DNA from: an uncultured Gemmatimonadota bacterium
GTDB lineage: Bacteria > JAAXHH01
Length of the DNA stretch: 64,000 bases
Assembly (NCBI GenBank): GCA_951812955.1
Contig: OX638340.1
Span: forward strand, 3,264,001-3,328,000
Direction of reading: 5' to 3'
The translations under genes were made by a program, and so were the position numbers. The notes under the pieces were generated by a model. The model was not told where the DNA came from and made no database searches. It saw only the letters and a list, made by a program, of their open reading frames with translations. Of the stretch, positions 19,496-38,638 are shown piece by piece; the first letter of the stretch is position 1; every line of letters starts with the position of its first letter.

Positions 19496-19540
19496 CCTGT
19501 GATTAAGCGCCAGAAAGTGAACGCGTCCGGACGGCTTCCC

Positions 19541-20716
19541 ATGTCGAACCACGTGATCGAAGCGGCGGCACAGCTCAGGTGGTGGCTGCGGCTTCCCCCG
19601 ACCAACCTCATCGACCGGGGCGACCACGTCCGTTTCCGGTACGCCCTCTACCTGATGATCCACCAGGTCGCCACCGTGCTCTACGGCATAAACGGGCTGC
19701 CCGAAAGTATGTACTATCCCTCGCGGCTCGAGGGTGCACGAAACCGCCTGGACGGGTTGACCCGGGCGCCGGAACACGCGGGCTCAATCCTCTGGACACT
19801 GGCGACCGAACGCGATCCGGAGAAAGCGTGGGCGGCCGCGGCAGGACTGATGCGGGATACCCTGGCATTGCTGGAAGAATCAGCGGATGGGCGTGGTTCA
19901 ATGGGTTGGGAAGTCGAGGAAGGATCATTCAAGCCGGATCAGTCTCGGAATCCCGATGATCTATACGCACTGGCCGCCGAAATCGCTGAGCGGCTTCGCC
20001 TCCTCGAGAAAGCAAGCGCCGTGGCTCTGGGCGGATCCCTGGGGAGGGGTTACGCAGACCGCCAGTCGGATATCGATCTGCTCTTTTTCGGGCCGAGCAT
20101 TCCCCGTGAGGTCGATCGCCGCCGGCTGATCTCGGCCTGGCCGGACATTCAACATGGACCCCTGGTCGAACCGGCCTGCGACAGCGTGGTGCTCGATGGG
20201 GCGATGGTCCATATACGCTACTGGACCAGGCAGACCGTGGAAGACATGCTGGCGGCAATTCCCAGGCCACCGGTACAGCGGATCCTTGCAGAAGAGTTAC
20301 AGAAATGCCACGTCTTGATCGATCCGGACGGAAGGCTTCTCGCGTGGAAAGGCGTTTTGCATCACATTCCATCGGAATTGGTCACGGTTATTTACGAAGA
20401 AGCGCGGGGAAGGCTGCCCGCTTTTCGTAAGCAGTGGCAGAAGGCGCAGGAGTCCGATGACCGGATCCATCTCTACTGCCTGGCCAACCAGGCCGTGAAC
20501 GATTTCCTGATTGCGCTGTATATCCGGAATGGGCGGTTTCTGAGCACGCCCAGATGGATTCACCTTGATACGCACGCGTTCGATGTCGGTCTGCCGGAAC
20601 TGGAATGCAGATTGGCTTCGTTTGTGGACGGGATAGACGACCGGAAAGATACTGCGGCGAGATGGCGCGCGCTTGAGGTTTTGTGGGGGAAGTTGGCGAG
20701 TTTGCCGCCTTCATAG
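19541..20716 (+). CDS. nucleotidyltransferase-domain protein (Pol-beta superfamily), unusual in having ~180 aa N-terminal to the NTase motif
   Basis: GGSLGRGYADRQSDIDLLFFG = GS-x9-DxD nucleotidyltransferase motif; ATG at 19541 preferred over track GTG at 19499. Confidence 0.55.
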   Translation: MSNHVIEAAAQLRWWLRLPPTNLIDRGDHVRFRYALYLMIHQVATVLYGINGLPESMYYPSRLEGARNRLDGLTRAPEHAGSILWTLATERDPEKAWAAAAGLMRDTLALLEESADGRGSMGWEVEEGSFKPDQSRNPDDLYALAAEIAERLRLLEKASAVALGGSLGRGYADRQSDIDLLFFGPSIPREVDRRRLISAWPDIQHGPLVEPACDSVVLDGAMVHIRYWTRQTVEDMLAAIPRPPVQRILAEELQKCHVLIDPDGRLLAWKGVLHHIPSELVTVIYEEARGRLPAFRKQWQKAQESDDRIHLYCLANQAVNDFLIALYIRNGRFLSTPRWIHLDTHAFDVGLPELECRLASFVDGIDDRKDTAARWRALEVLWGKLASLPPS

Positions 20717-21429
20717 GCCTTATGGTCGTCCGTGGTTGAGATTCGAAATGCTCTGCGCACATCTCGGAAATTACATCGTCTACGCGAAGGCTGAGATACG
20801 GCTATCTAAGGCGAGTCTGCTTCTGGAACAAAATAGACTTCGAGATTCAGGTTGAGAAATCGACTAATACCAGTAAGCAAGTTCCATGTAGGTATCCGTT
20901 TGACGTGTTCGGCTCTTGCGTTTGATCCACGCGTATTGTGCATTGCTACAATCATCGATCATCGGATTGCCTCTTATCGGGGCTGGATCGAATCCACGAC
21001 ATCGATCGAAGGAGTGGATTTCATGGGATGGCTCTATGAAGCCAAAAAGAGACGGCACAGGGTAGAAGGACGTGCTGAGGGCCGGAGAGAGTGACCAGGC
21101 CTACAGGGAGTGGATCAACAGGGAACAAGAGGCTGGTATGCTTGGCACACCGAAGCAAAGTCCTCCGCCGTTTCTTGATGATAGAATCTGCGATCAGGCC
21201 AACGGCTCGGATCATTGACACGGCTGGTTTTTCGATAGTCTCGGAAATCCGGGTATTGGCCTTTGGGGGACAGGATGGTTTGGCCAGTCGGATCCCCAGG
21301 ATTATTAGTAACGAATTCGGCAATGAGTCGTTTCTACGTCTGGCTCTGAACTTGCCCTATCCGGCTCAGATGTGACTACCACGTATACTGTCCTCCCCTC
21401 ATGCGAAATCGCTCGACATCGACCCGAAC

Positions 21430-21650
21430 CTCTTCCAGAGCCTTCGCGATTCCAACCTAAAGGATGGGGCGCTATAAGTATGATTTCCGTTCTATTTTGT
21501 CCAGATAGGTTTCGGTCAGCATCGACCCGTTGGTGACGATCGAGGTGGTCATCCCATATCCTTTCACCATTTCAATCAGATCCGCCAACTAGGGACAGAG
21601 CGTTTGTTCGCCACCTGCGAAACTCATTTCTTCGGTCCTTGCGTTCTGCA
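21430..21650 (-). pseudogene. remnant of a radical-SAM enzyme gene (fragment with internal stop)
   Basis: Minus-strand translation ...[44 protein letters not shown]... resembles the GGEPLL...TNG region of radical SAM/SPASM proteins but carries a TAG and lacks the CxxxCxxC N-terminus. Confidence 0.3.
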
Positions 21651-21941
21651 ACGTTGCCATTAGTGGCGGCATTGTTGGCTATAGAATGGACATCTACGTA
21701 GTACGGGGTTACGGCAGTCGAGGGCACGGCTCCGTTCTTCGGTCGGAAGCAAACGAGGAACCATCTAGTCGCTATTAAGGCTGAGGTGGCATTTTCAATG
21801 GCGAGCCGACACGCGGACTGGATGAAACAGGGTCGGCGAGATTATGAATACTACATCCGTGCGGAAGCGAAATGCGCACTGGCGAACGCCGCGCAGGTCA
21901 TCGACTTCTGTGAAGGTATTCTGGCTGGACCGCTCTCGACT

Positions 21942-22257
21942 GATGGAGCGTCTCAATCGAGCGGTCCGAACGCTGGGTGACCGCCACCCCGAAATCGAAT
22001 CGATCTATCTGTCCGGCTCGTTGGCGCGGGGAGACGCTGTACCCGGCAGCGACAGCGACGCGGACCTGCTGATCTTGGTGAGTCATGCCACCGAGCCGTT
22101 TCGGGATCGACCGGTCTGTTACCACACGACGGGTATGGGCGTGGACGTCGACGTGGTGGTTTACACGCGAGAGGAACTGGACGCGCTGCTGGAGACGGAC
22201 AACGAATTCGCACGGCGGGCATTGCGTGAGGGTGTCCGGTTGTTTCCGGTTCGCTGA
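21942..22257 (+). CDS. MNT-type minimal nucleotidyltransferase (antitoxin-like), apparently orphan
   Basis: ...IESIYLSGSLARGDAVPGSDSDADLLILV... = GSxxRG-x6-10-DxD of KNTase/MNT family; no intact HEPN partner found adjacent; start at MERLNRA ATG. Confidence 0.55.
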
Positions 22258-22425
22258 AGCGACCGGATACCGTGGTCTTTCTGGCCATGGTGGCAGTAAA
22301 CGGTTCGATCTTTCGGAGTTTGGGCGTTACGCGCTTTCAATCGAGATGGCCTTCGATTACGTTATAGTCGACAAGCTGTCAGGCGTCCCCAAAGGGATAA
22401 TCGCCCTGGATCTTGGAGGCGTTCG

Positions 22426-22860
22426 ATGATTAAGAATGAAAGGCAGTATTTGATTACGAAGGCTCAGGCTGCACGGTTCGTCCGCACTCTTGAAAGCCTG
22501 GATGGCGATGACGGTGTACATGATGTCATTCATAAAGCGCAACGGGATGCCGTACGAAGCCAGATCTCGGATATGAAAGCAGAGATTTCTGAGTACGAAT
22601 CGTTGAAGGCAGGGAACTCAAACCAGATCAACTTAAAACAGTCAACGAATTACCGGTGCTGCTAATCAAAGCGAGGATCGCTCAAGGCTTAAGCCAGAAA
22701 GATCTGACCGATCGGCACGGCTTAAAGGAACAACAAATACAGCGATATGAAGCCACGGACTATGTCTCCGCCGACTACCGCGACTCAGGGAGGTCGTCGG
22801 GGCCTTGGGAATCGAAGGAAAAACAATGAATTAGAATGAAACAGTCTCCGCATCTTAGTG
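22426..22860 (+). pseudogene. XRE-family HTH antitoxin (HigA-like) pseudogene with two frameshifts
   Basis: Frame 1: MIKNERQYLITKAQAARFVRTLESL...; frame 3 continues ...NELPVLLIKARIAQGLSQKDLTDRHGLKEQQIQRYEATDYVSA...(classic XRE helix-turn-helix); a third frame gives ...PRLREVVGALGIEGK. Shifts near 22640 and 22775. Confidence 0.55.
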
Positions 22861-22982
22861 GCCACATCAATCAATTTAACATGTTTCAACCGGTATACAT
22901 TCACACAAATATGCAAGCCATGTATCCAATGAAACAGTAGAGCCGTGGCTACCACAGCGAGCAGCAACTAGATTTGTTTAGG

Positions 22983-25900
22983 TTAGGCCATTAGATGCTC
23001 CAAAAGATTGTGGCTAACAGACCTGACTGTTCCCGTAGAAAGATCTAAAGCAACCTCCGCCATACCCACACCTTCGGATTGGGCGTTTATCTCTGAGCGC
23101 ATCCAAGCTCTTAGCCGTTCCGGCTGTTCATAGGTATCCAAAAGAAAGGAAGGGTAATTCAATTTTTCGAAGCTTGTGGGTTGGGTTTCTAGTCGGTTGA
23201 AAGCAAGCTCACGTACTTTCTTGTCACGTGTGAAACGGGCAGCTACGGCGCGCAAGCACGAAGGCAAAAACTCCCAGATATCACCACGGAGGTTCGACAT
23301 TCTCGTCTCAACTCCGATTACGAATTCATTCGGAGATGCGATTGCGGCTAACAATTGTATCTGAGCCGGAAGCAGGAGTTTAGGTTTTTCAGCTTGAACA
23401 CGGGTTCTCAGTTCTTTCCATGCTTGCGAGTCTGGCCAGCCTGCACTAAGGGCGATAACAAGCGCATTCGAATTGTCATCTAGAGTTACACAAGACTTTA
23501 GAACTTCGTAAGTTTTGGTATCGTTGGAAAATTGTTCAGCGAGAATTTCTGCAGCTACTATGCCAGGAGCAGTTTCGATCCAACTGCCTACATGGTGATA
23601 TTGAACTAAGGGGAGGCAAAGCTCGCGTAGTTGTTTCGTATTTCGCAATTGACTAGAATAAAGTTGTAGCATTGGTGCAGTCGTCATACTCTGACTAGCT
23701 TGTTCAACAATCTCGTCTGCTTTATCAGAATCTGTGGCGTGGGCAGCCATTTCCGTTAGGAATTCATCCGACATCCATCCTATTTGTTCCCAAATACTAT
23801 CACCGAACGCCTGAGTTATCCTATTCCAATGGCTGACCAAGTGTTCGGCTAATCGTAGGTTAGTGCTATGGACTACGCCAAAGCCTCGGTCATTTGTCTC
23901 ACATTCTGACCACACAGTTTTTACGATGTCAAGTCGGTCAAGCTCAAGAAGTACGGAGAAGGCCGCTTGGCGCCGGTCCCCGTAATCCGGTCCTATAACA
24001 AGCAACCCCTTTGTCAGTTTTTCAAGAAGTTCAGATGAGAGTTCATCTCGTTGAATGACTGATGCTGCGAAGCCGATTGCAGCTGCCGTTTTAACATTTA
24101 CATCTATATCTTCATCATAATCTGACAGAAGTTTATATGCGAAATCATCGTCTGGACCTAAGCGTGCAAGTCGATCGACGACAGTCAAACGGAGTTGTAC
24201 GGGGAGTGGACTACTTAGTTTGAGCAGTTCACAACGTATCTCATCACAATTTAGGTAGGCATTTGCAACGGTATTCAAGTCCCCTGCACGATTCCGTAAC
24301 TGATGAAAAGACAAGTCACGTACCTTGGGATGATTAGGAAAGTGTTTAATCAAGTCACTTACGCCCCAGTATGGTACGCCTGATGGTACCTCCCCCGAGT
24401 ATTTCTCTATAGCTGCTGGCACTACTTCCTCGTCATGCTCCTTTACTCCAAGATTGACCAATCCTATCAAAGCACCTCGGGCTGTTGAACCCGATTCATT
24501 GTTAAGAATCTCTAGTAAACGCCGCCGACATAGTACTTTATCGAGAAGAATCTCTGGCAGAAGATGTGCGGCCTTTATCGCAACATCACTATCAGCAAGA
24601 TTTAACAAAGCAGTAGCAACTTCTTTATCCTCCATACCCCATCCTAGTAACAACCACCGAGCTTGGTCCTTTGATATAACACCAGTATCCTCGTCCGGTT
24701 TAAGCAAAATACCCTTTGCCTGTTCTGATCGAGAGATGAGGCAAAGTTCGAAATCCCAAAATAACCTTCCGTTTTCTTTTTTAATTTTCCGCTCTAGCCA
24801 GTCGTCAACGGCTAGTCCTAATATCTGATGACCAGCGAATGCCTCAACGAGCGGTCCCCAGTTACCGCCAAGGCCAATTAAATGGCTAGGATAGTCTTCA
24901 GTCCGAAACAAACCTGCAATGGCCTCAGCAACCTCATCATCTTGCGGAAAACCTTCCAGCAGAATGATTCCGACGGCTCCAGAATCAACTATTACTTTAT
25001 CACCATTTCGTTCGATACTCCGTATCGCACTGTTTTTGACTCCAATGTCACCTGGCCAACCCTTGAGAAGAGCCCGAATTCGGTCGTCTTTCCAGCACCA
25101 TGATGCAAAGTGAAAATCTCGTGCAAGTTCTACTAATGTCTCGTAGTCATCCACATCCTGTTCTTTGCGTTTCACTCGATGAATTAGTGCGACACTTTGT
25201 AATGCAACATCGGCAGATGACCGCGCGTGCTTCAAGATTTCAGGAAGCCGATGATTAGTTTCCCAACCAAGGCAAAGCGCATGCAAGGAGCAGGCAAGCA
25301 GTCGCGGTTCAGAAGGAATCAATAGTAAGTCAAACAGCCATTCTGCAACAGAAGGATCACCTCCGTAAGCTCTTGCGAGTGATTCTGCTGCTATTCGTTG
25401 ATTCCAAGCTTCTTCATCAATAAAGCCACGCATTAATATCGCTTGGCCCTCGCTAGAAATACCCCATTTCGAGGCGGACTCATACATTCCGTGACGATAT
25501 TGATGTCGCAAGGGAAACCAGCGTTGAATACGGGACTCTACATGTGATCGCAGTATCTCGGATTCAAGTCCATCAAGTGCAAACTCAATAAGTCGTTCTC
25601 GAGTACCCGTGCGAACTCCGGTTTCTACAATCTCAAACGTCTCTTCCGCCAGTTTTCTGGCGACACTTGGCGAACAATGGAGATCACCAAAGGCTACTTC
25701 GGCAAGAAAGCTTTGCCGAGATAACTCCATTTCAGCCGCTAGTGGCATACTTTCGATAATCGCGACGAATTCATCCACCTCACCATACCGCGAGTTAAGA
25801 TGGCACAGGCACAAAAACACATCGTGCCACTGAGGATTCTTAAATCGTTTCTTCAATGCTTCCTTTTGCTGTTCAAATGGGAGATTAGATAGGTGTTTTG

Positions 25901-27872
25901 CAGCGAGGAATTCTTGTAAAGAGCGATGTAGAAAGCCGATCTCTATTGGTGATTTCTCGATGAGAACCCCAACTGCCTCGGTACCAATAGTGAGTAATTC
26001 TTCTGCTATACTATGTGCACCTTCCGGTTTTTTATGTAGGTGAGTTGAACAAAATCCCTGAAGCACATCCTTAGCAATGACTCTATCTAGAGCATCGCTC
26101 CCCGCTGAATCGTGGGTTTCCCAAGCCAACCTAGCCAATGCCCGTTCACGTGTTTCCTGTTGCAAATGTGAGTTGGTCCCGCGTGCGTGAACTGACTTTT
26201 CACGTCGCTTGGGCTGTTCGTCTAGCAGCAGACGTGCTAGTTCCTCGTATGCTTTGAATCTGCTGCGGGGAAGGCTCACTTTCTGAATGGCAAGAGCAAT
26301 TAGGCCATTAAGTAGTAAAGGCACCTTTGCCAGGCGGGATATCCGTAAATCACGGTGAAGGTCTTGTATGAATTGGGTGGCTTCGGATTTCGCCCTTTTG
26401 TGTCGCATGGCGATAGAGTCGCTATCTTCGCCAGGTACAGCAAGTGTGTAGGACCGATGCATGAACCATCGTTCAGCCAAGATTCCTTGTTGTTCATCTG
26501 TCAACCCAGAAAGCTGGGCTACACGCCACCTACTGCTTAGTCCACCGATCCGCGTATAACCTAGAGGACGACTGCTGACGATTGCTGGTACATTCCGTTC
26601 TCCCACGAATTGTTCGAGCAAACCAAGCGCCGTCCGAGCATCCGTGCCGTTACTCCACTCATCAAGGCCATCTACAAATAGCATTAATCTCGAATCTTCC
26701 AAAGCCTGCTGAACCAATGTAATTAGAGCTGTCTCAGCGGAAACTTTTTGAAGCCAAGCAGTGAGAACATTTGCTAACGAACACCCTGTTTCAGATTCGC
26801 TGACAAGTCGCGTCCACATGGCAAACGGAACCCAAACAGGTAAATATTGTCCCCAACGAAGAGCACTTGCCTCATAGCGCGGATCGGTACTAAGTAGATC
26901 AAGTAATACACAACGAAGCAAGGTACTCTTGCCGATACCTGGGTCTCCAAGTACAACCGACTGATCGGAGTCTGCAAGCCAGTCAATCGCTGAGCGGCGA
27001 ACTAGCGAGGGTCGAGGCAAAACTTGCGGTCTGCGGGATTGAGTAGAGTCTTCGTTTCCATCGGTGCGGAGTCGTCCTTTATTTTGATCTTCTATCGATT
27101 GATTAGTTGTTTCAATGTGGGCAGCTTGTTGTTCTTCCAGAATATCGGGAGGCACAAATCGATCGGCTAAACTGAGGGGCTGAAAGTCAGGTTTTATGGA
27201 ACCTGTTACGGACGGGATACCGGGATCGGAAATCTCGAAATGGTGAGTATAGCAACGCCGAAGAAGCTGTCGCAGTTGTACGACCTGACCAGGTTTTAAT
27301 CGGCGACTCGACAGTTTGGCAGCAGCTTCTTCGCCACAGAATTCCTGCACCCACTCGCGTCCAAAGAAGTCGTCTACTAAATCTGGATGGTTTTTTAGAT
27401 GTTCAGAAATCTGCGTGACACCAAGTGGTAGGAATTGGATGTTGCGTTCACGGAGGCGATCGCCTTGTGATTCTAATTCTATTGCAAGCTTTTTTTCTTC
27501 GGTCTTCACCGAAACTGCTAGTACAAACTTATCGGTTTTAGGTGCCCATGAGCCTTTTAAAAAACCAGTAACCGCAATGTCGATGAGATCCGAGCTGAAT
27601 TCCTTGTATCTTTTGCACTGCCAAACAGTATATCTGGATGATTCCAATGTGCGTACGTAGATATCTATACCTTCTTGATCCTGACCTGGAATCCCATACT
27701 CTTGACATCTTTCCACTTTTCCACCGCGCTGTGCGAGGCGAGCACAAAGTCTTTGAAAGAAGTTCCACGGTAAGAGGTTTAGTGGGAGTTCCTGTAATCT
27801 AGTTCTAATGGGATGAGAGACAAATGATTCAGATGGTACCCACACACTTGTGTTTTTTTTTGATTCTTCCAT
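22983..27872 (-). CDS. NLR-like antiviral STAND protein: N-terminal Mrr-type restriction-endonuclease-like domain + NACHT NTPase + ~1000-aa C-terminal helical (HEAT/ARM-like) repeat region
   Basis: N-term ...GQDQEGIDIYVRT...YTVWQCKRYK... (Mrr_cat-like D...QxK); Walker A VVLGDPGIGKSTLL; NACHT-type Walker B LMLFVDGLDEW followed by AIVSSRP; remainder alpha-helical repeats. Real ATG is second codon of track ORF (track starts at TTG). ~45% GC. Confidence 0.85.
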   Translation of the reverse strand: MEESKKNTSVWVPSESFVSHPIRTRLQELPLNLLPWNFFQRLCARLAQRGGKVERCQEYGIPGQDQEGIDIYVRTLESSRYTVWQCKRYKEFSSDLIDIAVTGFLKGSWAPKTDKFVLAVSVKTEEKKLAIELESQGDRLRERNIQFLPLGVTQISEHLKNHPDLVDDFFGREWVQEFCGEEAAAKLSSRRLKPGQVVQLRQLLRRCYTHHFEISDPGIPSVTGSIKPDFQPLSLADRFVPPDILEEQQAAHIETTNQSIEDQNKGRLRTDGNEDSTQSRRPQVLPRPSLVRRSAIDWLADSDQSVVLGDPGIGKSTLLRCVLLDLLSTDPRYEASALRWGQYLPVWVPFAMWTRLVSESETGCSLANVLTAWLQKVSAETALITLVQQALEDSRLMLFVDGLDEWSNGTDARTALGLLEQFVGERNVPAIVSSRPLGYTRIGGLSSRWRVAQLSGLTDEQQGILAERWFMHRSYTLAVPGEDSDSIAMRHKRAKSEATQFIQDLHRDLRISRLAKVPLLLNGLIALAIQKVSLPRSRFKAYEELARLLLDEQPKRREKSVHARGTNSHLQQETRERALARLAWETHDSAGSDALDRVIAKDVLQGFCSTHLHKKPEGAHSIAEELLTIGTEAVGVLIEKSPIEIGFLHRSLQEFLAAKHLSNLPFEQQKEALKKRFKNPQWHDVFLCLCHLNSRYGEVDEFVAIIESMPLAAEMELSRQSFLAEVAFGDLHCSPSVARKLAEETFEIVETGVRTGTRERLIEFALDGLESEILRSHVESRIQRWFPLRHQYRHGMYESASKWGISSEGQAILMRGFIDEEAWNQRIAAESLARAYGGDPSVAEWLFDLLLIPSEPRLLACSLHALCLGWETNHRLPEILKHARSSADVALQSVALIHRVKRKEQDVDDYETLVELARDFHFASWCWKDDRIRALLKGWPGDIGVKNSAIRSIERNGDKVIVDSGAVGIILLEGFPQDDEVAEAIAGLFRTEDYPSHLIGLGGNWGPLVEAFAGHQILGLAVDDWLERKIKKENGRLFWDFELCLISRSEQAKGILLKPDEDTGVISKDQARWLLLGWGMEDKEVATALLNLADSDVAIKAAHLLPEILLDKVLCRRRLLEILNNESGSTARGALIGLVNLGVKEHDEEVVPAAIEKYSGEVPSGVPYWGVSDLIKHFPNHPKVRDLSFHQLRNRAGDLNTVANAYLNCDEIRCELLKLSSPLPVQLRLTVVDRLARLGPDDDFAYKLLSDYDEDIDVNVKTAAAIGFAASVIQRDELSSELLEKLTKGLLVIGPDYGDRRQAAFSVLLELDRLDIVKTVWSECETNDRGFGVVHSTNLRLAEHLVSHWNRITQAFGDSIWEQIGWMSDEFLTEMAAHATDSDKADEIVEQASQSMTTAPMLQLYSSQLRNTKQLRELCLPLVQYHHVGSWIETAPGIVAAEILAEQFSNDTKTYEVLKSCVTLDDNSNALVIALSAGWPDSQAWKELRTRVQAEKPKLLLPAQIQLLAAIASPNEFVIGVETRMSNLRGDIWEFLPSCLRAVAARFTRDKKVRELAFNRLETQPTSFEKLNYPSFLLDTYEQPERLRAWMRSEINAQSEGVGMAEVALDLSTGTVRSVSHNLLEHLMA

Positions 27873-28376
27873 CAATGTAAATCCTTAAACCGATCGTCGA
27901 TGATGTTACCTCGATTTCGTGGACGATTTACCATTTGGGATTCAGGCTGTTTGCTTGAAGCTCCTTTCGTAGGTTGATGGTGAGAGATATCCGGGGGAAG
28001 AGTGCTTTCTCCAAGTATTGTAGAAGTCCTCGATGTATTCGAACAGTGCGAGTCTAGCCTCGGTCCCTGATTCGCTAGACCGACCGTATGTTGCAAGTGG
28101 AGAAACCTGAGAAAGTTATAGGTAGGGTTGCAAATACTATAATAAACATAGGCAATCACTACGTGGATTCGCCATCTGCACACAACCAAGGCACGCGTTC
28201 GAACGGGTTTTGGTTTCCAGTGATTAAACGATTCTTATATCGTCCTCGATATTCGAATTTCCGCAACAATATCAATTCGATATACCACTGACTTAGGCGT
28301 AAAGAATCCAATAGTGCATCCATCGAAATGTGACCATGCCTACGTTCAGGGTGAACGATATCATTACGAATCTTTG

Positions 28377-29444
28377 TTATCGCGGTCGGACCGTCCGTCC
28401 ATCCCTTCTTTTAGCAATCGCTTCCAAGTGTTTGCAGTGTGACGGAATTTTTGCTTCGATTTCTAATTCTTCGAGTGTCTTTTTTAACGATTTACCGAAA
28501 GAATACACCGTTTCCTGATTGATAATGTAGGACAGAGATTCTAGGGCAGCCTGAGTAAGAACGATTCCCACGTGAATGGCGCTGCCAGCACTATTCACAT
28601 ACCAATCTATAGCCCGACGAATGGCATCTTTCCATTCTTCCTTGGTATACAATTCCCAGAACCCACGAAAAGATCCGGAAAGACTGCCTCCCCCGTCATG
28701 TTTCGCGAGCCACGTGTGCCTGCTTTCTTGCCAGTGAGTTACGTACTTCGTTCCCCATAGTATGGACTGCTCCCCTCCACTTACATCAATTCCTTTTACA
28801 GATGTAAGACCACACGCCGTGCCACGAGCGAATGAGAAAAAGGTCCCTAATCCGTCTATTAAGGGTAATACGTCACCCACGGTAAACACTTTGTTGTTCA
28901 GAGAGTAAATTGCTCCAGTGTGGGTTATGGCATATCCTCCACTTTGTTTTAGGATCTTCTGATTCTCAAAAAAATTGCGATTTTCTTTAATCTCAATCCG
29001 CCAATGATCGACTTCTAGGATTGCGAACCCAAGTCGTCGATATACTCCATCTATTTCTATGTGTTTATCTTGTGCACCATAAAACGTTATGAAATTGAGT
29101 ATACCGAATCGCACAGATTTAAGTCGGACATCGGACCGAGCTACTGTACAAGGACTCTGAACAGGGCCTAAGGAACCTTTGAATCCAATTACTGAATCCT
29201 TATTGAGACTACATGACTTCAGCTTTACTCGAATCCTTCCGCCGCTCTTCAAGGAAATAAAAAAAGGTTCATACATAAATCTCTGTCGCATAAACAATGG
29301 ATATTCATCGGAATCGATAGAAAACTGTAATCTGGGCGACAGTCGAAGAACCGCGCGAACCTTACAAGGCGTGGATAGACATTGGTCTTGTATGTGAGTG
29401 ATACTTGTATCGTCAAGAACAACTGGTTCATTCGGTTTGCACAT
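28377..29444 (-). CDS. hypothetical protein, 355 aa, no recognisable motif; low-GC island gene between the RM gene and the NLR gene
   Basis: Long clean ORF, ~43% GC, codon usage like neighbours, 44 bp downstream of the RM gene stop on the same strand. Confidence 0.5.
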   Translation of the reverse strand: MCKPNEPVVLDDTSITHIQDQCLSTPCKVRAVLRLSPRLQFSIDSDEYPLFMRQRFMYEPFFISLKSGGRIRVKLKSCSLNKDSVIGFKGSLGPVQSPCTVARSDVRLKSVRFGILNFITFYGAQDKHIEIDGVYRRLGFAILEVDHWRIEIKENRNFFENQKILKQSGGYAITHTGAIYSLNNKVFTVGDVLPLIDGLGTFFSFARGTACGLTSVKGIDVSGGEQSILWGTKYVTHWQESRHTWLAKHDGGGSLSGSFRGFWELYTKEEWKDAIRRAIDWYVNSAGSAIHVGIVLTQAALESLSYIINQETVYSFGKSLKKTLEELEIEAKIPSHCKHLEAIAKRRDGRTVRPR

Positions 29445-29487
29445 AACCTACCGATTATCCTTCAATCACCGTGAAAAGATTCTTAAA

Positions 29488-32400
29488 CTACTCCATCGCC
29501 ATAATGATTCTCGCAATCCGCCTAGCGGTTTCCGTAAAGTACTTAATCTCTTGGGGATTGAGCGCACGCCCGATCACATTGAACTCGCGGTAGGATAGCC
29601 ATTTCTTAAGTACCTGATAGCCGCCAAGCTTGTAGTTCCAGATTTTGGTGGGTACGTTATGCCAGAAGGCGCGGTCGTTCAAATACACGTCCACAGTAGT
29701 TGCACCTAGTGCGGAAATCGCCGTACCTAGGACGGCGCGTTCGTCAGCCGTGTATTTGCGTTCGACGATGCGGCCTTTGCCCGGCATTACCGTGTCGCCC
29801 CGTCCGTAGTGACCCCACCTCGCAGTCACTGCGAAATCATCATCGGTCATATTGCTACCGTGGCTAGTTGTAGGCACGGCAAGCGAAGCGATCTCAGGTG
29901 GTATCGCACCCTGAGTAACGCCCGGTACCGGGGTGTCGGGATCAAATAGACAGGCTAGTTCACGACCCCGGTCGGCCGATTCAGCGAATAACTCAGCGGC
30001 ATTTTTGGTATCCCCATTGGGCCAGCCCGGTAGTGGTATACGCGGCCAGTCCATTGCAAGCGCCCCGGCATTAGCTTCACGATATGTCGGATTGTGGAGG
30101 ATGGTAAGGATGTTGTGGAATAAGTCCTCAGGACTCGCTCGTATACGATGGAGATAGCGTTTGCCAGCCTCAGATAAGTTTGGTAGGTAATGTAATACGT
30201 TGTCACCAGCCCCAAGGACGTCGTTGTTAAGATAGATGGGGAACCATATCGCAGTACGTTCGATTAAATGCATAGCACCAAAGTGTCGGGTAACAATGGT
30301 CTGTGCCTCCGTTACGTCCTTACGAAGATGCTGAGCTGCACACAGCCACAGGTTTTCCTCGAACACCTGTCGCTTGTAGTCGGCACGCTTGTCGTTAAGG
30401 AGTTTAGTCTCTGCTTCCCAGTAAAGCCATCGGATATCGAAGGGGCGGTACGCGAAGCGAATGAACCCGCCTTCGTTCGGTCCGCCGCGTGCGAGTAGTG
30501 TTTCGCGCACAGAGTGAGCGTCAAAATGCCTCGCGGTTTTCATGATAATAGGATATCGCTGGGCAATCTCGTTGTGGCTCAAATTCACGTCGAAATAATC
30601 GGAGACGCGGGCCATTAGTCGATCAAGGTCGATATCGACAAGAAACGAGTCCCGGTTGGTCTTTGCTCCAGGAAATGAGATCGGATAAATATCGGGTAAC
30701 GTAGGCCAGTTGAACCAGCCCTCACTCACCGCCGTACGCACGAACGGCAGGCCAAGCGGCAAAGATGGCTCGATGCGGTCATAAAGTACGTTTGGTTCCG
30801 CATGCGCCGTCGCCATCAGTTCCTTGCGCTTTGTACGTCCCCACAGATGGCGAAATCCGATCTCCACTGCGGGGGTATGATTGTACTTACGTACCAGAGT
30901 TGCAATGGCCGTACCCACCTGAATGCCAACCGGATTGTCCGGCGTCGAAAAGATACTTGGGTCTGGCGAGCCATCGGGAGCGACCTTTCCGGTCTTATAT
31001 TTGTCGCCATTTAAGCAGTCGATCCGAATCGAGTCGAAAACCTTGAGGAAGCGCTCCCTCATACCAGCGAACGACAGCCCGTCGAGCCAGGAATAATTGG
31101 AAATGAAACAGATTACCCCCTGACCGGTTCGCCCAGCAATCCGTCTTTCAGCCATACGGAAGAATCGGATGTATAGATCGATCAGTCCCTTGCTTTTTTC
31201 CATCCGTACTTTGCTTGTCTTACGATAGGCTTCGAAGAGTTCGCGTTCTTCATCAATCGTTACACCGGCAAAGGCATTATAGGGTGGATTACCCAAGATC
31301 ACCAAAACCGGAGTCTCCTGCTTCACTCTCTCGGCCCGGTCACGCTCTTCCTCCAATTCAGGGAACGGCAGCACATTCTTAGTTCGCGGCTCCCATCCAG
31401 TCAGAGCGTTTGTTAGGAAGACTTGGGCTCGTTCCATCCCGTCATCGGAAAACGTCGCATCAAGTGCCTGCATGGTCAACCCGATCTGAAGATGCGATAC
31501 GACAAAAGGCGCGGGCATGATCTCGAAGCCAAACACCCGTTCTAATGCCGCCTGCTTTACCTGCGAACCGACAAGCGCACCGACTCCTTTGTTTTCAAGA
31601 TTGGAAGCAATATTGCGTAACACTTCTGCCAGATAGGTTCCGGTACCGCAGCATGGGTCGAGCACATATACGTTTTCCGCAGCTAGTCCATCTGGAATCC
31701 CCAGATCGTCTTTGAGCGCTTTGTCCACTCGTGTAACCATATAGCGCACTACTTCGATTGGTGTGTACCATACGCCTAGTTGCTTACGCAACCCAGGGTC
31801 GAATGCCTGTAGAAAGGGCTCGTAGAAATAGGTTACCGCTTCGCCTTCATTGAATCGGGTGAAGAAGGTAGTGCGGTCCACACGGTTAAGAGCAGCGGAT
31901 GTCCAATCCAACACTTCCACTAGGCCTAGAGGCTCAAGGCGAGCAGGCTGTGAGAGTTGCTGGAACAGAGATTGCATGATAGGAGCACGTAAATGCCACA
32001 CAGCTTCACGCCAGTTGAACCGCCCTTGTGGCGGTGGCACCTGTCGTGTCCACAAAACCTAGGCGGAAAAAACCCCATAGAATAGTGTCTGCACTAGCGT
32101 TGAATTGAAAAACTGTGTGCCTTTTTCCCCCTCGAATCGGACACCAAGCGCGGCTTCTATCGCAGCCCGCACCGATTCTAGAGACGGCGAATCGTCGACG
32201 GCTTCGACACGAGAGAGCCCATCCCGAGCATAAGATGCTAACAACCACGCTAGGTCCTTAGGCTCGGTAAGCATAGTGCGATGTGACAAAGCTCGGGAAA
32301 GATACTCACCCAAGCCCACGCTGACCTCTCGGGCAAAGGTTCGCGGAGTCGCTAACTTTAGATCAAATTCCTCAGCAGTCTCGGCTACCTTAAAGCACTC

Positions 32401-32829
32401 CAATACCGTCTGCTTCCCGACATCGTCTTCTCCCACCAAAACGAATTCACAAGTGTCGGTCACCAGCACCTGACGATAGCGTGCCCAATACCGGGCGACC
32501 TGTTCGCCGACCGCTGTCGCTGCAGCATCACCAGAGAGTGACTTCACCTCCACAACGCCACGTTCCGGCGCTTGCTCTTCGCGAGGTCTGCCTCTCCTAA
32601 CCTGGTTTTCAGTAAAAAGCCCGAAGTCAGGATGGCCCGCACCTAGATCAGCAAGCTCTCCAACGCAATGCACCTTAGGATTGAGCATTCCACCGATGGC
32701 GTTCAGCAGATTTGCGATTGGTCCATAGCTAGAACGTTCTCCGGTCGCAGCCCCGGAAGCCTTTATTCTCTGCAAATCGGCGAAGTAGAGCTCAACTGCT
32801 GCAGTTAGTTTATTGTTCAATACTGTCAT
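29488..32829 (-). pseudogene. MmeI-like single-polypeptide Type IIG/IIL restriction-modification enzyme (PD-ExK nuclease + gamma-class N6-adenine MTase + TRD), interrupted by one in-frame TAG at 32059-32061
   Basis: N-part (32829-32062): ...LGAGHPDFGLF...GVVEVKSLS... PD-x(n)-ExK. C-part (from 32055): ...VLDPCCGTGTYL (SAM motif I), ...ILGNPPYNA (motif IV), C-terminal TRD. Both parts are in the same frame: TTT TCC GCC TAG GTT TTG TGG. Downstream part could still be translated from TTG/GTG as MTase+TRD. Confidence 0.75.
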
Positions 32830-33224
32830 GATTACAATTATAAGGTTGATGAATGCAGGCGCTATAGTGTGTTAGAGGAGTTATGCGAAAAGCGAGGAGT
32901 GGTGTCTAATGTAACAGCGACCTTTAAATGCGGATGTTTGATGCTCGTAAGAGTCAGGGAATTCGGGTTCTTTTTCTTCAATTTTCAATGTCATCAATGC
33001 GAAACTTCACCCTGACGTATTTGCTGTCTTCGTTTTGTTCAAGCTCTGGTTCAGCGCCGTTGAGCTCGCTAATCGCTTTGCGCATCAACGGCCACACTCT
33101 TCCTCTTTTCCATATATCCTAACTGCCATCTAATTTGCCATCAGTTTATTTTAACGTGCATGTATTCAGATAAAGTACTGTATTAAGTTGAGGACATCCC
33201 AATTGATCTCCTGTTGTTCCGTCC

Positions 33225-33491
33225 TCAGCGATATATCTTATCCCGTCTGCCAACTCGAATTACCAAAACGCGCAACGCTCCGGTCTGTATGTCGCAGATC
33301 ACACGAAAGTCACCGACCCGATATCGCCACAATTTGCCCATCGGTCCGGCCAGTGCCCTTCCCGTGTTTCGTGGATCACTGGAGTCAGCAACGCGTTCTT
33401 CAATGTAATTGACGATGCGCAGTGTCGTCTGCTTGTCGAGCTTGCGAAGATCGTTAAGGGCGGTTTCAGTGTACTCAATCGTCCAGGGCAA
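33225..33491 (-). CDS. RelE/ParE family type II toxin
   Basis: MPWTIEYTETALNDLRKLDKQTTLRIVNYIEE...GKLWRYRVGDFRVICDI... typical RelE/ParE fold sequence; overlaps antitoxin gene by 17 nt. Confidence 0.75.
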   Translation of the reverse strand: MPWTIEYTETALNDLRKLDKQTTLRIVNYIEERVADSSDPRNTGRALAGPMGKLWRYRVGDFRVICDIQTGALRVLVIRVGRRDKIYR

Positions 33492-33702
33492 GGGACTTTC
33501 TCACTTCGGAAGCAGTGTAGACTTTTTCCGTCCCTCTTCTGAGGCGATTCAGTACGTCCGACGCAAAGTAGTAGTCTTCCAGGTCTTCGAGGCCACGCTC
33601 AATGATCTCACGTAAGTGGAAGTCCTTGCTGAGGCTCGTCTTGGATACCAATAACTCAAGCCGCTTTTCATCTTCGGGAGTCAGTTGTATCGAAGTCGCC
33701 AT
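33475..33702 (-). CDS. RHH-type antitoxin (RelB/ParD-like)
   Basis: MATSIQLTPEDEKRLELLVSKTSLSKDFHLREIIERGLEDLEDYYFASDVLNRL...; ribbon-helix-helix N-terminus, immediately upstream of toxin. Confidence 0.65.
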   Translation of the reverse strand: MATSIQLTPEDEKRLELLVSKTSLSKDFHLREIIERGLEDLEDYYFASDVLNRLRRGTEKVYTASEVRKSLALDD

Positions 33703-33949
33703 GTCGGGTAATCCTTTGTCGATTAAACTACAACTGCGAAGAATCATCTAAGTTTCAACGTACTTCATAGAGGTACTTACGTCAATATCCTAATCCTTTT
33801 CGCGCGGACTGAGCCTGTCTTCATCTCAGTATAGTCACAATACTGTGGCCTAAGAAACCCCCCGCCACCCTGCATCCGCAATACCAACCCTTCCCCGCTC
33901 TGCCGCAGGCTATATTATCAGAAGGCGGCTCAAAATCCGGACGTCTGAA

Positions 33950-34984
33950 TCACGCCTCCTCGATAAACTTCTCCACGTCCACGCAGGCCCCGTCCCGTCT
34001 TGCCGATTCCCACCCGGCCAGAATAGGCGCAAGCGACTTGAGCCCATCGTGATAATCGCTCTGAAGCAGGCCGGGATTGTTCGACCTGACCGCTTCGACG
34101 AAGGTCCGGTCCTGGGCGAACCAGGGGTCAAAGGGGTCGGCCTCGTAGACGACCTCGTCATTCAGCTCGATACGCTCGTAGCCGAAGACCGCGAGTCTCC
34201 CGCCGTCGAAGTAGATTTTGAAGTAGGGCTCTTCGCCCGGCCCGGTCGGATCGGATTCGATGAAGGTCAGCGTCGCCGTGGCACCGGCAGACAACTGGTA
34301 GTGAAAAGACGAGGAGAGCGGCGTATGATATTCGTCCGGATGGTACAGGTACGCCTGGGAGCTGTGTACGTCCTGCCCGGTCATGAACCGGGTGTAGTCC
34401 GTGGCGTGCACGCCCCAGTCGAAGAACCGGACGCCGCCTTTCTCCACCTGGTGCGACCACTCGGTCCGGTCGGAGGCGGCCGGCTTGACGTTATGTGAGA
34501 TCTGCTGAAAGCGGACGTGCACCACGCGCTTGTCCTCTAGCAGCCGCCGGGCCTCTTGGAAGATGGGTCGATACCGTTCTCGGAAGCCTACTGTGCTGAT
34601 GACGCCGCCCTTCCGCACGGCCGCGTCGATCCGCTTCGCCAGGGCCATCTCCAGTGCCTGGGGCTTCTCGCTGAAGAGTTGTATGCCTCGTTCGGCTGCC
34701 GCGATTTCCACGTCGGTGCGGGCGAAGGCCGGTACGATAGACCACAATGCGTCGGGCTGTTCGGTTTCGAGCATTTCGTGGGCGTCCGAATATGTACGGG
34801 CGACCCCGAACTGCGCAGCCGCTTCACTGAGCGCGGTTTCGTTGATGTCACACAGCGCCGTGATTTCGGCACCGTCGATCCGGCTCAGGTTGGGCAGGTG
34901 CGTGGCCTGGGCAAACCTGCCGGTACCGTAAACGGCAACGCGGACGGGTCGATCAGTCATGGATGTTCTCCTAATCTCCTTCAC
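33950..34984 (-). CDS. Gfo/Idh/MocA family NAD(P)-dependent oxidoreductase
   Basis: ...VRVAVYGTGRFAQATHLPNL... Rossmann N-terminus and C-terminal GFO/IDH/MocA domain; high GC (core genome resumes). Confidence 0.8.
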   Translation of the reverse strand: MKEIRRTSMTDRPVRVAVYGTGRFAQATHLPNLSRIDGAEITALCDINETALSEAAAQFGVARTYSDAHEMLETEQPDALWSIVPAFARTDVEIAAAERGIQLFSEKPQALEMALAKRIDAAVRKGGVISTVGFRERYRPIFQEARRLLEDKRVVHVRFQQISHNVKPAASDRTEWSHQVEKGGVRFFDWGVHATDYTRFMTGQDVHSSQAYLYHPDEYHTPLSSSFHYQLSAGATATLTFIESDPTGPGEEPYFKIYFDGGRLAVFGYERIELNDEVVYEADPFDPWFAQDRTFVEAVRSNNPGLLQSDYHDGLKSLAPILAGWESARRDGACVDVEKFIEEA

Positions 34985-35073: not shown

Positions 35074-36114
35074 CTATACGGACGGCATTTCCACGCTTAG
35101 TTCGGCCGCGGTTTCCGAGATCGAGTCCCAGGTCTTTTCCGGAATGTAAATCCCTTCGGCCAACCGCTTCCGCTTGGCGACTTCTTCGATCTCCCCCGGG
35201 GCGTACACCTTCTCGAATCCCGGCAGGGGTTTCGCCGAACCCACGTAGGCCACGTGGGCTTCGATTTCTGCGGTGTATGCGTCCAGGTCCATGAAGGCCC
35301 CGATGTCCATGGCGGCGATCAGGATCCCGCCGCCGCCCTTGCCACCCGTACACCCGGCCCTGGACAGGGGGCCGATGATCATCTCGATCATCATGGCCAG
35401 GCCGTGCCCCTTGTGGCCGAACTGCAGGCCGCCCAGGGGCAGCACGGCCACCTGGTCCGGTTCGGCGTGATACCGGCTCCCGTCGTTGACGTAGCGGCCC
35501 TGCTGGTCAATCAACCAGCCATCTGGCATCGGCTCACCGCGTTCGATCTTCTGTTCCACCTTGCCGCCCGCGACCACGCTGAGCGTCATGTCCAGCATGA
35601 GCGGCGGCCCCTTCTCCCGGGGCACGGCGAAGGCGATGGGCTCGGGACGGAGGCGCCGGTCGGCGCTACCGAAGGGCGCCACGAATTCGCCGCCGCCGTT
35701 CAACCCGACCATGCCGATCATGCCGTGTTCGGCGATCCGCGGAGGAAAGTCCCCCAGCCGGCCGATATGGGAAACGTTGCGCAGGGCGACCAGGCCGATC
35801 GCGGCGTTCCGCGCTTTTTCAACCGCGATGGAGAGCGCTTTCGTAACCGCCACGATGCCGTTTGCGCCGTTCCCGTCGACTTGCGCAAAGCCGGGTCGGT
35901 CTACGATCACGGAATGGTCTTCCCACGGCTTGTAATCCGACTGCAGGGACGGGACGTAACGCGGCATGAACCACACGCCGTGGGAATCGTGCCCGAGCAG
36001 ATTGCTGGTCGTCAGGTGATCGGCGAGAATATGCGCGTCGTCTTCTGGGATGCCGGTCGCCTCGAAGATCGACCGGCTCAGGCTGTTCAGCTTGTCGTAG
36101 GGCACTACGGGCAT
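35074..36114 (-). CDS. Ldh_2 family (malate/L-lactate/ureidoglycolate/sulfolactate dehydrogenase-like) oxidoreductase
   Basis: ...GHDSHGVW..., ...HIGRLGDF..., ...GHKGHGLAMMIE... characteristic of Ldh_2 family; start at MPVVPYDKL (ATG 36112-36114); track N-terminal extension is translation of upstream tandem repeats. Confidence 0.75.
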   Translation of the reverse strand: MPVVPYDKLNSLSRSIFEATGIPEDDAHILADHLTTSNLLGHDSHGVWFMPRYVPSLQSDYKPWEDHSVIVDRPGFAQVDGNGANGIVAVTKALSIAVEKARNAAIGLVALRNVSHIGRLGDFPPRIAEHGMIGMVGLNGGGEFVAPFGSADRRLRPEPIAFAVPREKGPPLMLDMTLSVVAGGKVEQKIERGEPMPDGWLIDQQGRYVNDGSRYHAEPDQVAVLPLGGLQFGHKGHGLAMMIEMIIGPLSRAGCTGGKGGGGILIAAMDIGAFMDLDAYTAEIEAHVAYVGSAKPLPGFEKVYAPGEIEEVAKRKRLAEGIYIPEKTWDSISETAAELSVEMPSV

Positions 36115-36159
36115 GGGCCAACTCCTCTGGAATCTGAAGTTTGCTAACGCTGGGCATGG

Positions 36160-36270
36160 GCGTCGAGCCGGATCTCGCGGACCAGGAGGATCGAGCGCGA
36201 ACCGCGCCGGATCTGCAGGACCAGAAGAATCGAGCGAGGTTCGAGCCGGATCTGCAGGATCAGATGAGTA
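36160..36270 (-). repeat. 3 x ~38-bp imperfect tandem repeat directly upstream of Ldh_2-family gene start
   Basis: CGAGCCGGATCTCGCGGACCAGGAGGAT / CGAGCGCGAACCGCGCCGGATCTGCAGGACCAGAAGAAT / CGAGCGAGGTTCGAGCCGGATCTGCAGGATCAGATGAGT. Confidence 0.8.
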
Positions 36271-36524
36271 AAATATCACATCGCGGGTCAATGACAATCA
36301 GAATTGCGAATGACCTTGACTAGCCATAACGACATGAATATATTGGCACAATGAACCATATTGGCATTGCCAAAATGGCCATATCGGGACATATGACAGA
36401 ATGACATGATCTGAGCGGACTGGATATTCCCGCGTGCGGTTCCGTTGTTTTGATGAATTAACGATATAAATTACAACATCTTAAGTATGTATTCGAGTGA
36501 TGCGCAGATTGAAGAAGGTCGATG

Positions 36525-36540
36525 TTGGCACGGAAATTGC
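36525..36540 (+). promoter_or_regulatory. putative sigma-54 (-24/-12) promoter upstream of groES
   Basis: TGGCACGGAAATTGCA = TGGCAC-N5-TTGCA with GG-N10-GC spacing, ~95 bp upstream of groES ATG. Confidence 0.4.
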
Positions 36541-36635
36541 ACCATTGCACGGAAGGAATATGGACGCTAGCATCGTCAACAATCGTGCTGATTGAAGATC
36601 AGCGTACTTTTCACAATGGAAAGGAGCAGTAAACG

Positions 36636-36923
36636 ATGAACGTACAACCTTTGGGCGACCGCGTCCTGGTCAAGCGCCTCGAGGAAGAAGAGGTACAGCG
36701 CGGCGGTATCATCATTCCCGATACGGCGAAGGAAAAGCCGCAGCAGGGCGAGGTCGTGGCGGCCGGTCCGGGTCGCGTCGGCGACAACGGCGGCCGCGTG
36801 GAGCTGGAAGTCAAGGTCGGGGACAAGATCCTCTTTGGCAAATACTCCGGCACGGAAGTCAAGCTGGATGACGATGAGTATCTCATGATGCGCGAGGAAG
36901 ACATCCTGGGTATCGTGTCGTAG
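36636..36923 (+). CDS. groES: co-chaperonin GroES
   Basis: [14 protein letters not shown]...[24 protein letters not shown]... canonical. Confidence 0.95.
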
Positions 36924-36967
36924 AGAATCACGTGTTGAACCGCAGCCGCGATCGGGCTTGCGGATGA

Positions 36968-38638
<1,671 letters not shown>

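Follow-up and report, generated by a model that had tools for sequence, protein, structure and literature searches.

Chromosomal defence hotspots that carry no mobility genes are known from the pangenomes of E. coli and Pseudomonas and from the hsd-mrr-mcrBC 'immigration control region' of E. coli, and the PrrC anticodon nuclease is known to lie within a type I restriction locus, EcoprrI. ApeA proteins are HEPN tRNA anticodon nucleases, which are activated by 5'-phosphorylated deoxydinucleotides (bioRxiv 10.64898/2026.01.26.701840), and the sponge symbiont community is rich in defence genes (PMC5099237). The present work concerns a low-GC (guanine-plus-cytosine) island at positions 20,720-33,950 of a 64,000-nucleotide stretch of contig OX638340.1 from an uncultured Gemmatimonadota bacterium, hereafter called the window. 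What occupies this interval is very probably variable cargo, carried at a defence hotspot in the chromosome of an uncultured lineage associated with sponges and turned over by recombination and deletion without a site-specific recombinase. The region is a well-resolved example of an already known type, a defence hotspot without mobility genes. Like the known hotspots, it has conserved core flanks and a strain-specific defence cargo that deviates in composition, is edged by toxin-antitoxin genes and turns over with no integrase of its own. It differs from them in its host, an uncultured sponge symbiont, in a window cargo that is mostly disabled, and in a family of alleles with a restriction-modification (RM) enzyme and a STAND NTPase that recurs at the same site as non-orthologous copies.

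The features of the island and of its two bordering core genes are as follows.

19499-20716, plus strand: nucleotidyltransferase (NTP_transf_2/DUF4037 by Pfam), left-flank core gene found in all relatives
20717-21378, no strand: low-GC spacer with no recognisable gene
21379-21663, minus strand: remnant of a prokaryotic viperin (pVip) gene, recognised by tblastn fragments of the homologue in allele L083
21786-21980, plus strand: HEPN toxin gene, disrupted, with an open reading frame (ORF) of 64 aa left
21844-22257, plus strand: MNT-type minimal nucleotidyltransferase, the intact antitoxin partner of HEPN (Pfam NTP_transf_2, Polbeta)
22426-22778, plus strand: HigA-like helix-turn-helix antitoxin pseudogene, with a frameshift between 22614 and 22626 and a truncated C-terminus
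22983-27875, minus strand: STAND NTPase, intact, 1,630 aa (Pfam NACHT, 4.6e-10)
28162-29444, minus strand: ApeA/YopA-like HEPN gene, frameshifted; annotated ORF of 355 aa at 28377-29444
29488-32829, minus strand: type IIG restriction-modification enzyme, interrupted (PADLOC REase_MTase_IIG, 1e-82)
33225-33491, minus strand: ParE-family toxin, intact (Pfam ParE_toxin, 3e-14)
33475-33747, minus strand: ribbon-helix-helix-type antitoxin, intact (weak Pfam DUF6290 match)
33950-34984, minus strand: Gfo/Idh/MocA oxidoreductase, right-flank core gene (Pfam)

The island has a GC content of 0.489 as compared to 0.605 for the rest of the window. When measured in 1-kb segments, GC ranges from 0.445 to 0.534 within the island (mean 0.49, n=13) and amounts to 0.606 +/- 0.037 outside (n=50; Mann-Whitney p=1.8e-7), and the GC-normalised tetranucleotide correlation with the rest of the window is 0.31-0.52 in the island and 0.69-0.90 outside. 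A first-pass annotation of this DNA had proposed a drop from about 65% to about 43-55%; the drop is borne out by both measures, with the figure of 65% being slightly high for immediate flanks of GC 0.61-0.65. At 200-bp resolution the island is itself patchy: GC is about 0.50 at 20.7-21.7 kb, rises to a host-like 0.60-0.63 over the MNT gene, falls to about 0.45 from 22.4 to 29.5 kb, and is then about 0.53 up to 32.8 kb and about 0.46 in the last part (32.8-33.9 kb). Each identifiable gene between 20.7 and 33.9 kb belongs to RM, STAND, HEPN, viperin or toxin-antitoxin types, in agreement with the proposal that only defence and toxin-antitoxin genes, several of them broken, are present. Five of them are disrupted (viperin, HEPN, HigA-like, ApeA/YopA-like and type IIG), and the STAND, the MNT, ParE and the ParE antitoxin are intact. 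At least five modules make up the mosaic of the window allele, namely the viperin remnant, HEPN-MNT, HigA-like, the type IIG/ApeA-like/STAND cassette, and ParE with its antitoxin.

The annotation had also found by eye no integrase, transposase, tRNA or obvious direct repeat, and domain scans, ARAGORN and Rfam searches and a repeat search agree. No integrase, recombinase or transposase domain was present in any ORF scanned, neither ARAGORN nor Rfam detected a tRNA between 20 and 34.5 kb, and direct and inverted repeats at the island junctions were no better than chance, at which about 100 exact 10-mers are expected within 14.5 kb. The best junction-spanning pair, the D8 repeat at 20531 and 33458, was considered as an attachment or deletion site and rejected, as it matches at only 14 of 17 nucleotides (82%), which is at chance level. 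Nor does it mark the endpoint of the deletion in allele L082, which retains about 165 bp of nucleotidyltransferase coding sequence past the left D8 copy.

A scan of sponge metagenomes with the nucleotidyltransferase gene, together with look-ups of homologues, recovered eight other versions of the locus, giving nine alleles with the window. Their core flanks are collinear, with the order argR-argC-argB-argD-argH-GNAT-nucleotidyltransferase on the left and Gfo/Idh/MocA-Ldh_2-groESL-MoxR on the right, where relatives carry an optional lipoprotein gene before Gfo/Idh/MocA. In L097 and L098, too, the flanks consist of collinear core genes, which does not fit an integrase-mediated island. Between these flanks the cargo ranges from near-empty (L098) up to about 13 kb, and the eight versions contain the following.

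L098: nucleotidyltransferase, a 155-aa lipoprotein gene and Gfo/Idh/MocA, a minimal, near-empty site
L097 and L081: intact HEPN-MNT and the lipoprotein gene
L083: HEPN-MNT, intact viperin and one unknown gene
L082: nucleotidyltransferase nearly directly joined to a ParE stub of 14 codons, followed by the antitoxin, a near-empty site
L085: a 9.3-kb low-GC insert with full HigA, two C5-methyltransferases, HD-CE, ORC/CDC6-like, CARF-like, a restriction endonuclease and Vsr
L090/L091: STAND, intact type IIG enzyme, antitoxin and the lipoprotein gene
L086: type IIG enzyme, intact YopA/ApeA-like gene, STAND, MNT and HigA

Three Mediterranean sponges, Sarcotragus foetidus, Aplysina aerophoba and Petrosia ficiformis, are the sources of alleles L081, L082, L083 and L085, and L082 and L085, which are differing alleles, share one Aplysina aerophoba metagenome. 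The nearest named relatives by argH are metagenome-assembled genomes of Latescibacteria and Zixibacteria at 74-75% identity, the STAND protein of L090 is labelled 'Gemmatimonadetes bacterium' at NCBI, and a contig scan with argH returned no close relative, with a best identity of 56% among the matches listed.

The positions at which homology to the window breaks off shift from one allele to another. On the left, blastn alignments end at 20563-20564 in L082, L090 and L098, at about 20700 in L085 and at about 20740 in L081, L083 and L097; the left edge of the island is placed at 20,720-20,740. On the right, homology resumes at 33438 in L090, at 33450 in L082, at 33475 in L085 and at 33950 in L097 and L098. 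The first three of these right-hand points are situated in the 5' part of parE or coincide with the stop codon of the antitoxin gene, and several breakpoints fall inside nucleotidyltransferase or ParE coding sequence. The right boundary previously set at 33,950 therefore stands against L097 and L098, whereas against the closest relatives L082 and L085, both of which carry the antitoxin gene, the edge lies at 33,450-33,475.

Divergence contrasts sharply between flanks and cargo. Flank genes of the window and L090 share 86-92% amino-acid identity with a synonymous divergence (dS) of 0.41-0.64. The STAND proteins at the same locus are 60% identical with dS 2.8 and the restriction enzymes have dS of at least 2.3, both values being saturated, and the window STAND is nearer to the L087 copy at another locus and to the copy in the Poribacteria contig L089 (dS 1.14) than to that of L090. 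The nucleotidyltransferase gene has a dS of 0.82 against L090, between flank and island values, and its final 170 bp or so (from 20563) form a hypervariable mosaic with at least three alleles among the relatives. In comparison with L086, the STAND (dS 0.53) and the MNT (dS 0.35) are flank-like, a short flank fragment having 0.56, but divergence is roughly doubled in the restriction enzyme and the middle gene. STAND genes have GC at third codon positions (GC3) of about 0.40 in hosts with core GC3 of 0.78-0.88. Module order is also permuted, as seen for pVip versus HEPN-MNT in L083 and for MNT versus HigA in L086.

The shifting breakpoints, the divergence contrast, the permuted order and a restriction-enzyme relic in L087 (described below) are consistent with a region that changes by deletions and by homologous recombination, through which alleles would be replaced repeatedly and cassettes shuffled. 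Homologous recombination anchored in the conserved flanks would exchange the cargo, recombination anchored in conserved genes within the island may do the same, and deletions would remove it. Acquisition by homologous recombination of the flanks, raised at the outset as one of two possibilities, is the best fit, given that no recombinase or attachment site was found, that the breakpoints vary within genes and that island dS far exceeds flank dS. Of the other possibility, an old insertion undergoing erosion, the erosion holds and the single insertion is not supported, since at least five modules differ in GC, distribution and divergence over nine alleles. As to whether relatives carry the same genes at this locus with host-like composition, L090 and L086 do have genes of the same kinds here, yet these are low in GC and show non-orthologous divergence. 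Several points weigh against turnover by recombination: it is deduced from few metagenomic contigs, several of them short, with no event directly observed; the saturated dS of the RM and STAND genes means that very fast local evolution is not formally separable from replacement; and the single-base frameshifts of the ApeA-like and HigA-like genes, situated in short A-rich runs, could be assembly errors.

The latter point, together with a related contig that by its name has only 3x coverage, would also fit an artefact of assembly or binning, in which a foreign low-GC contig was joined to a high-GC genome and the 'pseudogenes' are sequencing errors. This is exceedingly improbable, as independent assemblies span the junction from the nucleotidyltransferase to HEPN-MNT (L081, L083 and L097), the stretch from Gfo/Idh/MocA to RM-STAND-MNT (L086) and even the whole locus (L090), and a TGG-to-TAG substitution and deletions of 258 bp and about 430 bp are atypical types of error. 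It is also very unlikely that the interval has belonged to the chromosome since ancient times by vertical inheritance, and that its low GC and divergence arose from fast, diversifying evolution of immune genes rather than from horizontal transfer. Such inheritance would account for the RM and STAND genes that L090 and L086 also have at this site, for the agreement of the L086 STAND with the short flank fragment in dS, and for an antitoxin gene that is low in GC yet flank-like in dS. It does not account for a window STAND closer to the copies of Poribacteria and of the unrelated L087 locus than to that of the orthologous L090 locus, for the gap between STAND and host core GC3, or for the lack of RM and STAND genes in L097 and L098, whose flank similarity to the window is about that of L090.

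A single integrative element (genomic island, integrative and conjugative element or prophage), which later lost its integrase and attachment repeats, is highly improbable as well. The low GC is contiguous for 13 kb, many genes are decayed and an IS1595 transposase lies beside the related cassette in L087, all of which such a remnant could explain; but GC and divergence vary from module to module, modules occur apart (HEPN-MNT alone in L097, RM and STAND alone in L090), the island contains no detected repeat, tRNA or recombinase remnant, and the STAND was not found in the viral contigs of IMG/VR. Repeated replacement of cargo between conserved flanks is thus retained as the preferred explanation.

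The largest intact gene of the island encodes a protein that begins with a PD-(D/E)xK (Mrr-like) nuclease, continues with a NACHT domain, in which the translation shows the Walker A motif GDPGIGKST and the Walker B motif DGLDE, and ends in a C-terminal helical region of about 1,100 aa. The N-terminal domain has a weak Pfam match to Mrr_cat (3.7e-3), its residues D71, Q86 and K88 do not vary among 17 homologues, and its AF2 model, with pLDDT of at least 85 over residues 30-190 or so, resembles in a structure search the nucleases EcoT38I (E 3e-4), MspJI, Avs4 and Cap4. Residues 800-1630 of the window copy have no Pfam match, while the precomputed domains of some homologues include HEAT_2. Homologues number about 460, full-length ones of 1,600-1,680 aa occur widely, and the protein belongs to an uncharacterised nuclease-NACHT family spread over several phyla, including sponge-symbiont phyla. 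It shares with the Avs and bNACHT STANDs (Avs4 structure 8dgf; bioRxiv 10.1101/2022.07.19.500537; PMC13581612) the succession of a nuclease, a NACHT ATPase and a long C-terminal region, here of putative repeats, and its nuclease fold matches the Avs4 and Cap4 effectors. Unlike them, it matches no PADLOC model among the curated defence models and has no match in a sequence search of the PDB, and its C-terminal region lacks a Pfam match. By homology with Avs and bNACHT, the putative C-terminal repeats may sense a phage cue, upon which the protein would oligomerise via NACHT and then free the PD-(D/E)xK nuclease. It is likely a working part of the window allele.

Members of the same STAND family, 65-67% identical, occur in Poribacteria in a different hotspot, which lies within the Bat operon and is bordered by MoxR and DUF58 (L089 6238-14895; L094 6110-14462; L096 6290-14890). 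There, a conserved gene of 218-249 aa is always found upstream, with a weak Nuc_deoxyrib_tr match in L089, and the companions are GmrSD or SLFN_AlbA_2 (Schlafen-like) and MazE-PIN. In a distant relative on the Deinococcus aetherius plasmid pDAETH-3 (L099 7929-12796), the nuclease is a separate ORF of 229 aa, labelled 'restriction endonuclease', upstream of the NACHT protein, the gene being either split or disrupted.

The type IIG enzyme combines in one chain an N-terminal nuclease, a gamma-class N6-methyltransferase (NPPY) and a Type_ISP_C specificity domain; Pfam matches are to N6_Mtase, Eco57I, MmeI_Mtase and Type_ISP_C, and the PADLOC match spans both fragments, one of them of 855 aa. Upon read-through translation its sole internal stop is an in-frame TAG at 32059-32061 (codon 257), and this codon specifies W in both L086 and L090, which indicates a TGG-to-TAG change in the window. 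Read-through of this stop was considered and rejected, as the homologues have an ordinary W codon, and recoding as the cause of the RM and ApeA-like lesions was discarded because, with the standard bacterial code, the flanking core genes read as unbroken ORFs that match Pfam.

Four independent alleles, distributed over two loci, have a restriction enzyme next to the STAND, the cassette of L087 lying at a different locus beside the IS1595 transposase. The gene between them varies, being absent from L090, YopA/ApeA-like in the window and L086, and DUF4238 in L087/L088. The RM gene is broken by different lesions in three of the four alleles, by TAG in the window, by a frameshift near residue 71 in L086, which is doubtful as this contig is at 3x coverage, and by one near residue 440 in L087 and L088; the STAND is intact in all four. 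L087 further contains, between its DUF4238 gene and the STAND, a 73-aa ORF (5671-5868) that corresponds to a type IIG C-terminus and is 35% identical to residues 1012-1105 of the window RM enzyme. This relic is the footprint of a swap within the cassette. In more distant relatives, namely Poribacteria, Cylindrospermum, the Deinococcus plasmid and an Enterobacter IncHI2 plasmid, no type IIG enzyme was found near the STAND, so the linkage of RM and STAND is not general and a functional link between them is hypothetical.

It is possible, though doubtful, that the type IIG enzyme and the nuclease-NACHT STAND are inherited together with the middle gene as a single cassette of layered function, in which RM and STAND serve as anchors for swaps of the middle gene and the HEPN RNase acts as a back-up responding to products of DNA breakdown. 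This proposal extends two precedents, namely that deoxydinucleotides are reported to activate ApeA and that a restriction enzyme can be guarded in the manner of PrrC. As with PrrC, an HEPN-type RNase gene lies in or beside an RM locus; the partner in the window differs from EcoprrI in being a single-chain type IIG enzyme with a STAND gene next to it. If the cassette acts in this manner, the HEPN protein would react when the neighbouring nucleases fire or are blocked, and the recurrent loss of restriction would reflect selection against self-damage rather than neutral decay.

In the window the middle gene carries a frameshift at about 28389-28410, some 10 codons ahead of an RNDIVH motif, which is thus out of frame; intact relatives have about 428 aa, and the final 83 codons, read in the other frame, are 93% identical to L086. 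The window copy is probably dead. The family has about 57 YopA-like homologues, the R-N-x3-H (RNxxxH) HEPN motif is invariant in 50 sequences, YopA_M and YopA_C are precomputed for homologues, and the family is homologous to SPbeta yopA (E 1e-21). Like ApeA (bioRxiv 10.64898/2026.01.26.701840) and SPbeta YopA, it is a single gene in a defence context, whose predicted fold, very confident with pLDDT 93, has a beta-rich N-terminal region and a C-terminal helical domain with RNxxxH. Unlike ApeA, it has only a weak ApeA_NTD1 match of 21.5 bits, below the Pfam cut-off of 25.5, matches no PADLOC defence model, finds no significant match when its model is compared with the PDB by Foldseek, and is frameshifted in the window. 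A second family member, P0143, is frameshifted within about five codons of the position in the window copy, just upstream of RNxxxH, and these two independent members each yield a 355-aa product. A programmed frameshift was considered for this gene and set aside, as no canonical slippery heptamer is present.

On the left side of the island, the pVip remnant keeps residues 60-118 and 230-300 (approximate limits) of 300; residues 1-59 and the region of the CxxxCxxC radical-SAM motif are gone, and about 430 bp have been lost internally as judged by blastn against L083, whose intact viperin is recognised by PADLOC as pVip (E 9e-113) and by Pfam as Radical_SAM. The adjoining spacer at 20717-21378 contains three ORFs with no Pfam match at E<=1, and its part from 21206 to 21378 matches by blastn and tblastx the sequence downstream of the L083 viperin gene. 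In the HEPN gene, an in-frame internal deletion of 258 bp (86 codons), which corresponds to L083 2355-2612, removes the Rx4H motif RYPNSH; intact HEPN genes of 135-139 aa (Pfam HEPN, 1.7e-30) are present in L081, L083 and L097. With the MNT whole, at 87-89% identity and dS 0.19-0.20 to those of L081 and L083, and HEPN without its Rx4-6H motif, the window HEPN-MNT fails as a complete toxin-antitoxin pair. The HigA-like sequence is split by tblastn over two frames, against a full-length L085 homologue of 134 aa with HTH_3. In most modules it is the harmful partner that is disabled, and we infer that toxin loss was selected rather than neutral.

At the right edge, the antitoxin is a 90-aa ORF upstream of ParE with an overlap of 17 nt, which fits the layout of a ParDE-type pair. 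It is 92% identical to the L082 copy (dS 0.12) and flank-like against L090 (dS 0.43), and acts as a conserved flank in L082, L085 and L090, in which ParE has shrunk to stubs of about 14, 5 and 17 codons, respectively. In the window, ParE and its antitoxin are a standard addiction module that is likely working and may stabilise the right edge of the island. A predicted lipoprotein gene of 152-155 aa adjoins Gfo/Idh/MocA, by synteny and tblastn, in L081, L086, L090 (2133-2591), L097 (14646-15104) and L098 (13261-13728). It is absent from the window (33748-33949 region), L082 and L085, which have the antitoxin, with or without ParE, in its place, indicating that the hotspot removed a core gene in this sub-lineage.

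Elsewhere in the window, a second low-GC variable patch lies at 12030-13665 between moaC and argR (GC 0.46-0.49, tetranucleotide correlation 0.44). Its equivalent holds a PIN and a MazE-like gene in L097 and PIN, MazE and GmrSD_C in L098, and ORFs without Pfam matches stand in place of these PIN/MazE genes in the window. Within the patch, a tRNA-like element at 12895-12968 on the minus strand scores 37.7 bits with the Rfam tRNA model and is assigned by ARAGORN a four-base anticodon 'cacg' and no amino acid. A smaller GC dip (0.535) at 36000-37000, intergenic between Ldh_2 and groES/groEL, aligns with relatives and is thus conserved, with no insertion.

Taken as a set of alleles, the locus offers a view of the exchange and loss of immune genes in uncultured sponge symbionts. 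Low GC can persist at a locus across related genomes via repeated allele replacement, and need not mark a single recent insertion. Leads that emerge from it are the nuclease-NACHT family of about 1,630 aa, the YopA/ApeA-like fold without a solved counterpart, and the recurrent arrangement of an RM enzyme, a variable gene and a STAND.

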